NCBI GenBank assembly: GCA_045546615.1
Contig: JAZQDD010000020.1
Coordinates: 972 to 64,971 of the forward strand
Length of the DNA: 64,000 bases
Source: Eubacteriales bacterium
Lineage (GTDB): Bacteria > Bacillota > Clostridia > Oscillospirales > CAG-272
Direction of reading: 5' to 3'
The notes below the pieces were generated by a model, which saw only the letters and a list, made by a program, of their open reading frames with translations, ran no database searches and was not told the origin of the DNA. Positions 2,739 through 48,700 of the stretch are shown here, piece by piece (position 1 is the first letter of the stretch; the number at the start of each line of letters is the position of its first letter). The position numbers were made by a program, and so were the translations under genes.

Positions 2739-2775
2739 AAAAGATTCAAATTTGTTGGGGCAACCTAAGAAAAAA

Positions 2776-2802
2776 GCAGGAGCCTCGCGCTCCTGCTTTT
2801 TT
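2776..2802 (+). terminator. rho-independent terminator
   Basis: GCAGGAGC-CTCGC-GCTCCTGC followed by TTTTTT. Confidence 0.8.
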
Positions 2803-2805
2803 CAA

Positions 2806-2985
2806 CGAAATTTGCCCTTGGGGCAAGTGAAATAGCTTCGCTGTGAAATATTTGCTACGCAAATGTGAAATGTTCGCTAACGCGAACGTGCAAATTTCAT
2901 TTCACATTGCGACTATCGGGAGCAATATTTCACAATTTTCGCAAGAAAATTATTTCACATTCGGCAACGCCGAATATTTCACTAA
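2806..2985. repeat. array of GTGAAAT / ATTTCAC heptamers separated by short unrelated hairpins
   Basis: GTGAAAT at 2827, 2843 and 2865 (variant GTGCAAAT at 2888). ATTTCAC at 2899, 2927, 2952 and 2976. Every interval is itself a small palindrome. Confidence 0.85.
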
Positions 2986-3017
2986 ATATATGAGTTGCTT
3001 TTTTGTACTATGAGGCC

Positions 3018-3243
3018 AAGGGGCTGTCTCATTTAGCGCAGAACAAAAATACAAAAATAAGTAAAGAAAAAAAGACCGTTTTTTTCGTTCAAAAGGATGA
3101 AGGAAGCGGTCTTTTTAGGTAGAAATCCTCACGGATTTCGATTTTTATACGTATTTTTTAGCCGCGCTTTTGCCATCACGCGTACCCTCGTACGCCGACG
3201 ACGGCAAAATCGCGACTTCTGCATCTAACTGAGACAGCCCCTT
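3018..3243. repeat. ~226-bp structured element bounded by ~25-bp imperfect inverted repeats (MITE-like or structured RNA)
   Basis: AAGGGGCTGTCTCATTTAGCGCAGA (3018-3042) versus the reverse complement of TCTGCATCTAACTGAGACAGCCCCTT (3218-3243). Several nested internal hairpins. No ORF. Confidence 0.75.
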
Positions 3244-3254
3244 TCTTTTTCCTT

Positions 3255-3332
3255 TTCTTTACCACCCCAACCGCCCACTCCCCCGAGCGCGGCTTGCGCG
3301 GCGCGCTCACCCCTTCGCCGTCCTCCGAGGGC
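3255..3332. repeat. GC-rich palindromic repeat module, copy B
   Basis: CCGCCCACTCCCCCGAGCGCGGCTTGCGCGGCGCGCTCACCCCTTCGCCGTCCTCCGAGGG, homologous to 1783-1862. Confidence 0.8.
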
Positions 3333-3503
3333 AAGAGAAACCGTTAGTAAGCACCTTTTTTACGCCCTTTTGGGCTTGAGGGTGCGGCTTTATCACATCA
3401 TCCGAGATCAACTGCCTTGATCGAAATTTCCTCACCAAAGCAATAAAAACTATATGCAGTCAATAAATCACTTTTTGGTTGAGGCATATCATTCATAAAT
3501 TGC

Positions 3504-3532
3504 TTGATTCAAATTCTACCGTGTGCTATAAT
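3504..3532 (+). promoter_or_regulatory. promoter of the 3560 gene
   Basis: TTGATT-N17-TATAAT. It lies inside the N-terminal extension of the longest ORF, which argues for the ATG at 3560. Confidence 0.7.
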
Positions 3533-3559: not shown

Positions 3560-5092
3560 ATGAAAATTCAGATTGCGGAAAATATAAAAAAATTTCGTAT
3601 AGCAAGCGGATATACTCAAAATGAGCTTGCGATACTTTTGTCTGTCTCTCCTCAAGCGGTGAGCCGTTGGGAAAACAGTCAAGCTTTCCCCGATATTACT
3701 CTTTTACCGACGCTTGCAAAGTATCTCAACGTAACTATAGACGAGATCGTGGGGAGTGAAGGGCAACGAAGTGAATGCTTGAAAAAAGAGTTATTCGAAC
3801 GCAAGATGGCAAATATTGACGATGAATCAGAAAGGGTGAAAAATGAACTTCGTATTCTTGTGCTTTATGAAGAATTGGCACATACGGAGTTGCCTTATCT
3901 GATCAGCTATTTTCGGCATTTAATGGATATAAAAGCCTATAAACGGTTTATACTAAATGATTTAGAGAGCCGAATTGAAAACGCGCGGCAAATGATTCGG
4001 GATCGCCTGAGAATATCAAATATGCGTGACCGTGTGACTCTGCTAAGCACCGTGGCCGCCTTCGAGGACGATGAGAACCTGACACGTTGGGCAGACGAAT
4101 ATCGGCTCCCCGAATATATTAGAGCAAACTTTTGGGATGAGCTTTTGCTGACAAGATATACAAGAGAACAAAACGTCAAAAAATTGAGCGAGCAAAACCA
4201 AAAAATCCTGTACGGGCATATCAAAAACACTATTTATTATTTGACCGACAGTATTCACGGTGATATGAGAGCGCGGGGAACAGAATTTAGTGCCCCTGAA
4301 AGATATAAAACGGCGCTTGATACGCTTTCCCTTTATTCGACACAAGTGGACGATATCTTTATCTTTGTGCGAATTATCGCAGAGGTGAGATACGCCGAAG
4401 CGCTTTTGGTGAATGAGCGCATTGAAGAAAGTCTTTCATCGTTTGCGTTAGCCGCCGAGCATCTTTCGGTATTGCATCAATTACCCGACGGGGGAGTGCT
4501 TTGCGGTTCTGTTTTTGCGCTCAGTTCGGTTCGTCTTGTCGTTGACGGTATGGATAAGCTTGAAAAATGCGTGTTCAATTTGGGCGGCTATGATGAAAAT
4601 CCGCTCTTTGACAAAATTCGCACAGACAAGCGTTTTATAGAATTTATAGAGGTGTTAGAAAAATTTCTTCCGCGGCGCAGATCGGGATGTTGGGTGAATG
4701 AGAAAGGGAGAGATACCCTCGATGCTCAATGGGAAATGCTTCTAAACAGGGCAAGCAAAGAGGCAGATAAGCTTTCGGATGGCAACGTTGTGGTGATTCT
4801 TACCGCCAAGGGAGCGGTTGCTTCGATTTCGTTTCAGAATATACATTCCGCAATTGAGGCAGAAAATGCGATGAAGTTTCTTATTGAGAAAAAGAAAAGG
4901 GGAGATGACAAAATCGAGCGGCTGATATGTATGCGGCACGATGGTGGTATTGATCTGCCTTCATTTGCTTTCAGAGAGGCGCTTGTGGCTATTGACAGCA
5001 AGAATCTTTTGACGCAGATGCTTTTGAATGGATCAAGCGGGTATGTTGTCAAGACGGTAAACGTGACGATGCCTAAAGGATACAAAAGTTAA
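3560..5092 (+). CDS. XRE-family HTH regulator with large (~440 aa) uncharacterised C-terminal region
   Basis: GAGGGGAAG RBS before ATG 3560. HTH motif LAILLSVSPQAVSRWENSQAFPDITLL. The upstream TTG at 3479 is rejected (promoter inside, no RBS). Confidence 0.85.
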   Translation: MKIQIAENIKKFRIASGYTQNELAILLSVSPQAVSRWENSQAFPDITLLPTLAKYLNVTIDEIVGSEGQRSECLKKELFERKMANIDDESERVKNELRILVLYEELAHTELPYLISYFRHLMDIKAYKRFILNDLESRIENARQMIRDRLRISNMRDRVTLLSTVAAFEDDENLTRWADEYRLPEYIRANFWDELLLTRYTREQNVKKLSEQNQKILYGHIKNTIYYLTDSIHGDMRARGTEFSAPERYKTALDTLSLYSTQVDDIFIFVRIIAEVRYAEALLVNERIEESLSSFALAAEHLSVLHQLPDGGVLCGSVFALSSVRLVVDGMDKLEKCVFNLGGYDENPLFDKIRTDKRFIEFIEVLEKFLPRRRSGCWVNEKGRDTLDAQWEMLLNRASKEADKLSDGNVVVILTAKGAVASISFQNIHSAIEAENAMKFLIEKKKRGDDKIERLICMRHDGGIDLPSFAFREALVAIDSKNLLTQMLLNGSSGYVVKTVNVTMPKGYKS

Positions 5093-9513: not shown

Positions 9514-9760
9514 AAATAAAGACAGTGATGAAGCGAGTACTGTGAGTATCTTGTGTACAGAGAGCCGTGGGTGCTGAGACACGGCACAAGACTTATGGGA
9601 AAAACACTTCGGAGTCGGCGGAAGAAAGCTACGGCGAGTAGAACCGCACGTTCGTCGCGTAAAGACGCAGTTGAGTGGATCGCCCTTGGCGGTCAATTTG
9701 GGTGGTATCGCGGAAGCTTGCCTTTCGTCCCATGCGGGGCGGAAGGCTTTTTGTTTTTAA
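9514..9760 (+). promoter_or_regulatory. T-box riboswitch leader, specifier AAC (Asn)
   Basis: AGAGAG bulge and GGTGCTGAGA distal loop. T-box sequence AATTTGGGTGGTATCGCGG (9695-9713). Terminator GCCTTTCGTCCC-ATGC-GGGGCGGAAGGC plus TTTTT. AAC-A (9603-9606) sits directly before helix CTTC, which pairs with GAAG. Confidence 0.9.
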
Positions 9761-48435: not shown

Positions 48436-48700
48436 GTAAATTTCAAAAATCAAACGCAATGACGGAAAATGTGTATGTGAAAAGCGTTTCAGAGAGCCGA
48501 CGGCAGCTGTGAGTCGGTACGCGGTCACGATGCACTCTCATTCCCGAGTGGGACATTTGAAAGGGTGTCACGGATGCCACCGTTACAGGGCAGGGAGCTG
48601 TTAGGCTCTTGTAAAGGAGGTCGCGTAAGCGGCAATTTGGGTGGTACCGCGGTTTTTATCGTCCCTGAAGCAATGGCTTCGGGGGTTTTTTGTTTTTTAC
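48436..48700 (+). promoter_or_regulatory. T-box riboswitch leader, specifier CUC (Leu)
   Basis: AGAGAG bulge and GCAGCTGTGAG distal loop. T-box sequence AATTTGGGTGGTACCGCGG (48634-48652). Terminator CCCTGAAGC-AATG-GCTTCGGGG plus T-run. CTC-A (48537-48540) sits directly before helix TTCC, which pairs with GGAA. Confidence 0.9.

Follow-up and report, generated by a model that had tools for sequence, protein, structure and literature searches.

Gut-1 is a motif that was described from 43 human-gut metagenome sequences (Weinberg 2010, Genome Biol 11:R31, PMC2864571). Its covariation led the authors to regard it as an RNA with certainty, and they rated it as not cis-regulatory; it was present in no sequenced organism, and no function was assigned to it (PMC2864571). 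Since 2010 it has been an orphan 'RNA' motif, with neither a host organism, nor a genomic context, nor a function. Pneumococcal BOX and RUP and the Correia elements of Neisseria are MITE-like modules of 100–200 bp with inverted-repeat ends and strong secondary structure, which are dispersed over intergenic sites and can carry terminator or promoter activity. Arrays of C-GNA-G mini-hairpins that work only in single-stranded DNA (ssDNA) are known from the complementary-strand origins of G4 and St-1, from ssiA/ssiB of RSF1010 and from the N4 early promoters (PMC13037366), and the palindromes of Streptomyces telomeres form arrays of small hairpins with C-GNA-G loops (PMC5449611). The sequences GCGNAGC and GCGNNAGC are extraordinarily stable mini-hairpins as DNA, and their RNA versions are much less stable (PMC13037366, PMC3201870).

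Here we show that an array of heptamers and hairpins represents a full copy of a composite palindromic repeat of gut Clostridia, ~190 bp in length, of which the left arm is Gut-1. Gut-1 is thereby placed in named lineages of gut Clostridia as half of a larger, very regular module lying directly behind tRNA and other terminators in one orientation, and sequence-level grounds are given for suspecting a DNA element, namely strict Watson-Crick covariation, mini-hairpin loops and the use of opposite strands. A literature search for the heptamer pair, and for REP-like elements of Clostridia, found nothing beyond Weinberg 2010.

The array in the window and its Gut-1 arm

The window, i.e. the whole 64-kb stretch of DNA analyzed, had been predicted to hold an array of GTGAAAT heptamers and of their reverse complement ATTTCAC separated by small palindromes, and all coordinates of this original prediction were correct when checked on the sequence (Table 1). 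The heptamer in either orientation occurs at 11 sites in the whole window, compared to 9.1 expected by chance, and 7 of the 11 are located inside 156 nt (2827–2982), a clustering that none of 200,000 random placements of the 11 sites reproduced. As predicted, the seven spacers are all palindromes anchored at the spacer ends, with stems of 2–7 bp counted from the spacer ends (the true stem of the first spacer is 6 bp, offset by one base), and 6 of the 7 exceeded composition-matched shuffles (P ≤ 0.014). Folding of 182 nt with DNA parameters gave z = −7.9 and −7.4 relative to shuffles for the + and − strand, respectively, and in the minimum-energy fold the heptamers pair across the arms with the mini-hairpins protruding, which bears out the suggestion that one long helix is possible. 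Heptamer orientation flips at about 2895. No credible ORF is present between the genes at 2007–2738 and ~3560–5092, and only frames of 42–56 aa run over the array. The array is real and far from chance. In CRISPR arrays, direct repeats of 24–48 nt alternate with unique spacers of about the same length. The present array is neither of this kind nor a simple tandem repeat, its 7-nt repeats being in both orientations and its palindromic spacers 9–21 nt long.

Two points of the prediction had to be amended. The sequence GTGCAAAT at 2888, taken for a variant heptamer, is not a decayed heptamer but part of a conserved long-range helix (P0), because GCAAATTTC is the 3' strand of this helix and pairs with GAAATTTGC. 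The start had been set too late, as a degenerate first heptamer lies directly after the terminator. The spacers are unrelated, as had been stated, among themselves within one copy, but each position is conserved or covarying across genomes. Since the 5' strand of P0 overlaps the 5' arm of hairpin 1, these two pairings are mutually exclusive.

Table 1. Parts of the element copy in the window (positions of the 64-kb window)
Feature	Position	Strand	Basis or remark
hp0, bidirectional intrinsic-terminator hairpin (A-run, 15-bp stem, T-run)	2769–2803	+	inverted repeat, 15 nt, 100% complementary
First heptamer, degenerate, ACGAAAT; left end of element	2805–2811	+	within Rfam Gut-1 consensus CAaUGAAAU
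Long-range helix P0, 5' strand GAAATTTGC	2807–2815	+	pairs with 2890–2898
Hairpin 1 (TTGCCC / GGGCAA)	2812–2826	+	sequence, Rfam alignment, palindrome test
Arm A core	2827–2871	+	with 2803–2826, RF01706 Gut-1 match, 64.2 bits
Arm A heptamers GTGAAAT	2827–2833, 2843–2849, 2865–2871	+	sequence
Arm A hairpins AGCTTCGCT, ATTTGCTACGCAAAT	2834–2842, 2850–2864		− strand loops GCGAAGC, GCGTAGC
Central hairpin GTTCGC-TAA-CGCGAAC	2872–2887	+	− strand loop C-GTTA-G
Long-range helix P0, 3' strand GCAAATTTC	2890–2898	+	complementarity, covariation
Arm B	2899–2982	+	Gut-1 on − strand, 48.0 bits; covariation
Arm B heptamers ATTTCAC	2899–2905, 2927–2933, 2952–2958, 2976–2982	+	sequence
Hairpin B1, tandem G-A pairs	2906–2926	+	
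Hairpin B2, loop C-GCAA-G	2934–2951	+	
Hairpin B3	2959–2975	+	
Conserved module extent	2794–2987	+	sole part of the 64-kb window aligning to any of at least 120 related loci

In an Rfam scan, RF01706 (Gut-1; gathering score 50) matched 2803–2876 on the + strand with 64.2 bits and, over arm B, 2894–2984 on the − strand with 48.0 bits, slightly below the gathering score. The Gut-1 consensus in the cmscan alignment reads UGAAAU-hairpin-GUGAAAU-hairpin-GUGAAAU-hairpin-UGUGAAAU; arm A belongs to Gut-1 because its score is above 50 bits and it has three variable hairpins between conserved GUGAAAU linkers. To this extent the earlier suggestion of a multi-stem structured RNA agrees with the Rfam annotation of the left half. 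The raw Gut-1 alignment of Weinberg includes seeds that run on into the inverted heptamer set and have a terminator or tRNA in front, and both arms are also present in the seed BAAZ01000095.1. When 18 further loci were scanned, RF01706 exceeded its threshold for arm A at 14, in each case in the direction of the tRNA, and for arm B at one. The Gut-1 part is already known, and the Rfam model covers the full composite only partly.

The hairpin hp0 ends the upstream XRE-type gene (2007–2738) and belongs to the repeated module in many relatives, in which a counterpart of the central hairpin is also present; the first heptamer is conserved as CAACGAAAT in class-A relatives. By blastn the module was 91.7% identical over 193 nt to locus L179, which follows tRNA-Ser, and 89.7% identical to L184. 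An nhmmer match covered 2797–2987 (E = 1.9e-42) as a single copy in the window, and no tRNA gene was found in the 64-kb window.

The product of the upstream gene has an N-terminal XRE-type HTH followed by C-terminal Gly/Cys-rich repeats (GGC-N/K-S/T-G...), for which there was no Pfam match. The window also holds a second, G+C-rich repeat of ~100 nt in two copies (1788–1880 and 3262–3360; CCACCCC..CCGCCC.CTCCCCCGAGCGCGGC..GCGCGGCGCGCTC..CCGTCC.CCGAGGG) with no Rfam match, the first copy of which follows a terminator at ~1755–1790 much like the one in front of Gut-1 (GAAAAAAGCAGAAGCCTCGGGCTTCTGC vs GAAAAAAGCAGGAGCCTCGCGCTCCTGC). Downstream of the array, in the ORF-free stretch, a 19-nt inverted repeat (3018–3036 / 3225–3243, 95% complementary, arms 188 nt apart) brackets a terminator-like hairpin at 3069–3116. 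Two T-box leaders at 9516–9735 and 48450–48669 were above the Rfam gathering score (118 and 104.9 bits, respectively), as would be expected of DNA from Firmicutes/Clostridia.

A composite module in the genomes of gut Clostridia

The original prediction had proposed a search for similar arrays. When a species-representative genome collection was searched with a pattern of arm B plus the centre, the same composite was recovered at 120 loci or more, and the array is conserved in relatives. All the related loci listed (at least 120) were Clostridia MAGs from human, ruminant and rabbit guts, and the carriers among the matches listed included Oscillospiraceae, Acutalibacteraceae, Ruminococcus, Christensenellaceae, Faecousia and others. 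Searching a viral collection with a three-heptamer pattern gave mostly ordinary tandem repeats and five true elements; the pattern spanned a single arm, four of these five have both arms, and all five are probably host flanks or prophage-adjacent sequence. No match was obtained by blastn against plasmid and cultured-phage collections.

The layout of the module is a terminator hairpin, arm A with four heptamers, a central hairpin and arm B with four inverted heptamers, held together by a covarying long-range helix. Starting from the 3' end of a gene, the order is the terminator, which is strong and in most cases bidirectional, ACGAAAT plus three GTGAAAT with small hairpins, the central hairpin, a back-pairing segment and four ATTTCAC with longer hairpins. 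The module ends in inverted heptamers (ACGAAAT ... ATTTCAC), and its boundaries are sharp. A typical copy has 4+4 heptamers among the matches listed, which fall into a GTGAAAT class (69 copies) and a GTGATAT class (55 copies). Both arms are almost always of the same class; L088 is a mixed copy, with one GTGATAT in a GTGAAAT arm.

Pairing was quantified for both the long-range helix and the small hairpins. The 11 nt to the left of arm B were complementary to the start of arm A at 11 of 11 positions in 67 of 113 elements and at no fewer than 10 of 11 in 98 of 113, and the helix occurs in several covarying types; in a 45-sequence alignment it was 99.2% paired, with 7 of its 11 pairs changed on both sides. 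Stem variety was high, with 26–41 distinct sequences at five of the six hairpin positions counted and 6 at the third arm-A position. Watson-Crick pairing of the stems was 87–95%, compared to 30–42% with shuffled partners, at five positions; at the third arm-A position the shuffled value was 65%. Over the whole 45-sequence alignment, 94.4% of cells were paired vs 70.4% in shuffles, and 301 of 1230 cells were changed on both sides. Judged by this covariation, the folded structure is under selection.

Position behind terminators and distribution of copies

Among the matches listed, the element is always located just 3' of a transcription unit in a single orientation, and all copies are intergenic and behind terminators. 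tRNA genes within 300 nt were found on the arm-A side only (same strand, 63; opposite strand, 1; arm-B side, 0; among the matches listed). Of the listed copies whose flank was long enough, ~45% come after a tRNA gene, whatever its anticodon; diverse protein genes, including rpoC and ppdK, precede the remaining copies. The terminator begins 0–1 nt past the tRNA CCA and runs as an A-run, a strong hairpin, a T-run, CA and then the first heptamer. The association is specific, since the element was present at only 2 of 120 metagenome loci, drawn from many environments, whose tRNA-Gln 3' end is identical. Orientation relative to replication, estimated from per-locus GC skew, was 74 vs 43 overall and 26 vs 20 for the tRNA loci, a bias too weak for the polarity to be tied to replication rather than to the upstream gene.

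A promoter search of the conserved module and its immediate flanks was negative, apart from a match in arm B that was weak and at chance level, and the next promoter in the window is located at 3504–3532, about 500 nt from the element. Terminator-like sites on the + strand within 200 nt after arm B were found at 33 of 89 loci compared to 13 of 89 in a control segment, with enrichment at 15–130 nt. Remnants of a tRNA T-arm after arm B, the signature of island integration, were also sought and rejected, a T-arm-like motif being present in only 3 of 123 loci. A PF05635 gene (23S rRNA intervening-sequence protein, four-helix bundle, 84.9 bits) with its own promoter lies within ~100 nt after arm B at 9–10 of ~120 listed loci (L121, L124, L130, L136, L141, L146, L174, L178 and L194). 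These loci follow different tRNA genes, and this is the only small family recurring beside the element among the matches listed.

Copies that lie after different genes in different species are 90–97% identical. Their similarity ends sharply at about −99 (about −125 with the terminator) and about +90 relative to the centre, and between non-orthologous copies it often reaches about −125. Two copies were present at 19 of 120 listed 8-kb loci, either in tandem at a distance of 0.3–2.7 kb or one behind each member of a divergent tRNA pair. REP/BIME elements number tens to hundreds of near-identical copies per genome; for the present element, at least 5 copies were counted in the MAG RGIG4012 and 1 in the 64-kb window. 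Contigs often end in a copy, which is what a repeat exceeding the assembler k-mer should cause. The element had also been suggested to be a nest of decayed miniature palindromes. This is half right, as the copies are many and dispersed, but what is dispersed is one intact module of high conservation and not a decayed nest.

Among 2076 ORFs of the 8-kb neighbourhoods, no recurrent transposase, RAYT, integrase or recombinase was found. No target-site duplication was recognized and no empty site was recovered; for a same-species comparison, exact look-ups of three window proteins gave no match, nor did the last part of the upstream gene, of which a 24-mer was sought exactly in metagenomes. Judged by the distribution of copies, the module was probably copied or homogenized between terminator-proximal sites in a fixed orientation to the upstream unit. 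At L154, L238, L171 and L198, both classes or different subfamilies occur at one locus, some in tandem ~30–55 nt apart, which suggests repeated arrival at the same intergenic site. Locus L143 (4100–5300) contains a tRNA-Ala, a terminator, the element, a BspA-type leucine-rich repeat gene (PF13306) and a second CCA-terminator-element; its two terminator loops are mutual reverse complements (TTAC vs GTAA), and the layout looks like a duplication or a recombination across the palindrome. In L039, a phage terminase gene is located on the tRNA side away from the element, and host-like sequence with a GH39 gene lies past the centre. The break points of L039 and L120 are both at the element centre.

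Readings of the module and comparison with known systems

Changes in the stems and the composition of the loops bear on whether the module functions as DNA or RNA. One-sided, G-U-type changes were found in 11 of the 1230 cells vs 301 two-sided changes, and in the stems G:T stood to A:C as 42:22 in arm B, compared to 26:25 in arm A. When read on the 5'-ATTTCAC-hairpin strand, the loops were C-GNA-G in 134 cases and C-GNNA-G in many others, with only 3 of the reverse type, and about half of the C-GNNA-G tetraloops (GTTA, GTCA, GACA, GATA) were not GNRA. The strand favored by the loops is + for arm B and − for arm A; the preference of arm A comes mainly from loops and is weaker than that of arm B. 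The loops in the window fit the DNA rule (arm A, −: GCGAAGC, GCGTAGC and C-GTTA-G; arm B, +: C-GCAA-G). The scarcity of G-U changes, the DNA-type loops, the opposite strands and the lack of a promoter argue for an element that acts at the DNA level rather than as RNA. On these sequence-level grounds, we consider it about an even chance that the module is a REP/BIME-like, DNA-level, terminator-associated repeat that would be read through its invariant heptamers.

Weighed against this, a structured noncoding RNA made from the + strand, by read-through of the terminator or from an unrecognized promoter, is less likely, though a serious rival and the main one; in such a transcript the GUGAAAU / AUUUCAC linkers would serve as a platform or sponge for an RNA-binding protein, or the whole would form one long multi-junction RNA. 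It agrees with the above-threshold RF01706 match, the strong covariation of all hairpins and of the long-range helix, the rating by the original authors (PMC2864571) and the greater stability of the arm-B hairpins on the + strand, with G:T exceeding A:C, tandem G-A pairs and some true GNRA loops; the terminator-like sites are enriched after arm B, so that a read-through or independent + strand transcript is conceivable. Yet the element starts right after a strong terminator, the module is promoter-less on either side, G-U intermediates are almost missing, and the arm-A loops favor the opposite strand. Moreover, about half of the tetraloops violate the GNRA rule of RNA and fit the GNNA rule of DNA (PMC13037366), and C-G-closed GNA triloops, which are exceptional in DNA and not in RNA, predominate. 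A site for specific recombination or attachment, comparable to integron attC or island att, into which cassettes or prophages inserted beside tRNA genes, is quite unlikely, although it agrees with the tight and directional adjacency to tRNA 3' ends. Its further evidence consists of individual loci: a one-gene cassette (BspA-type LRR) between two copies in L143, each with CCA and terminator; 2.7-kb segments flanked by copies in L134, L149 and L205; L039 (6268–11806, on a viral contig), which keeps the tRNA, terminator and arm A and diverges at the centre; L120, with arm B only and an unrelated small gene before it; and the PF05635 gene directly after arm B at 9–10 listed loci behind different tRNAs. 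Copies that are split or truncated make up only 2 of about 130, however, most loci are single-copy with ordinary genes on either side, and no integrase or recombinase recurs in the 8-kb neighbourhoods. Integron attC sites have R''/L''-L'/R' boxes with a GTTRRRY core, cassette arrays and an IntI gene nearby; the element has neither an attC-type core (GTTRRRY / RYYYAAC) nor long cassette arrays.

It had also been proposed that the array is a binding platform for the XRE regulators encoded around it. Such a multi-site operator for neighbouring XRE-family HTH regulators would suit the four HTH_3 genes within 7 kb in the window and the invariance of the heptamers, which resemble protein-binding sites in this respect, but we regard it as very improbable: across ~125 related copies listed, the neighbours are unrelated and XRE/TPR genes flank only ~6, the flanking genes are not conserved (~45% of the upstream genes are tRNA and the rest diverse), the irregular 9–21-nt spacing of the half-sites is unsuited to an operator in double-stranded DNA, and the element lies downstream of a terminator, far from the next promoter. 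The heptamer resembles half-sites of Rex, CRP, parS and Noc, and individual hairpins resemble CodY or cre boxes, which we take to be likenesses over 6–7 nt with the wrong spacing or arrangement.

For the favored REP/BIME-like DNA repeat, the most likely course of events is as follows. Supercoiling between units, replication or R-loops would open the duplex, and the palindromes would then form very stable DNA mini-hairpins with C-GNA-G or C-GNNA-G loops on the strand reading 5'-ATTTCAC-hairpin (arm A, −; arm B, +), with the invariant 7-nt linkers displayed as a regular 4+4 array. Alternatively, linkers of the two arms may pair with each other, which would give a stack of four-way junctions. A putative trans-acting protein would recognize the linkers, and the role, the least certain step, would probably be terminator-associated insulation or the control of DNA topology where heavily transcribed units end. 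As a more specific and tentative possibility, Gut-1 may be a chromosomal ssDNA signal of a new kind and not an RNA, consisting of 4+4 DNA mini-hairpins on diverging strands with a dedicated reader protein. In gut Oscillospirales, a mechanism that targets hairpins or terminators would bring such a signal to the 3' ends of tRNA units and of others that are heavily transcribed, its reader protein would have two specificity classes, ATTTCAC and ATATCAC, and its purposes may be management of transcription-replication conflicts or topology, loading of primase or helicase on SSB-free DNA, or self-mobilization. If the DNA reading is true, a repeat family that is widespread among abundant gut bacteria has been wrongly classified, and these bacteria would possess a REP-like system with a putative protein partner. 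In practice, metagenome assemblies are interrupted by the element, which can also give rise to false sRNA annotations.

The window element agrees with the Gut-1 family in its arm-A score above threshold, its consensus and its gut habitat, and the seed alignment itself holds the inverted second arm and the upstream terminator or tRNA. Gut-1 as described, however, has one arm and is named an sRNA, and here it is half of a ~190-bp composite. Compared to the Gut-1 model, the window element adds the un-modelled second arm, the covarying closing helix and a fixed site behind terminators or tRNA genes, and its family differs from Gut-1 as described in having two heptamer classes and loop and pairing statistics that point toward DNA.

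BOX, RUP and Correia elements differ from this element in that no target-site duplication or autonomous partner was found here and the orientation to the upstream gene is fixed; to our knowledge, the 4+4 organization of heptamers and mini-hairpins has no counterpart among them. The REP/BIME elements of Proteobacteria (PMC5581495) share more with it, since they too are short palindromes outside genes, have a conserved short motif where the hairpin starts on its 5' side, occur in multiple copies and inverted clusters at the 3' ends of transcription units, and are thought to act or to be mobilized as ssDNA hairpins. In the present family, ATTTCAC precedes every hairpin on the favored strand, and the copies are intergenic and behind terminators. 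The differences are that REPs have one hairpin sequence per genome, whereas eight different hairpins are combined here in one fixed module; that the motif is GTAG in REP and the 7-mer ATTTCAC here; that REP has a RAYT (Y1 HUH transposase) gene with the repeats on its flanks, none of which was found in the 8-kb neighbourhoods of the listed loci; and that the host clade is Clostridia, with a tRNA association and strict polarity that are much stronger.

The known ssDNA signals belong to replication origins or to the termini of phages, plasmids or linear chromosomes, whereas the present element is a dispersed chromosomal repeat behind terminators. In ssiA/ssiB and the Streptomyces telomeres, opposite strands are used on the two sides, like the two arms here.
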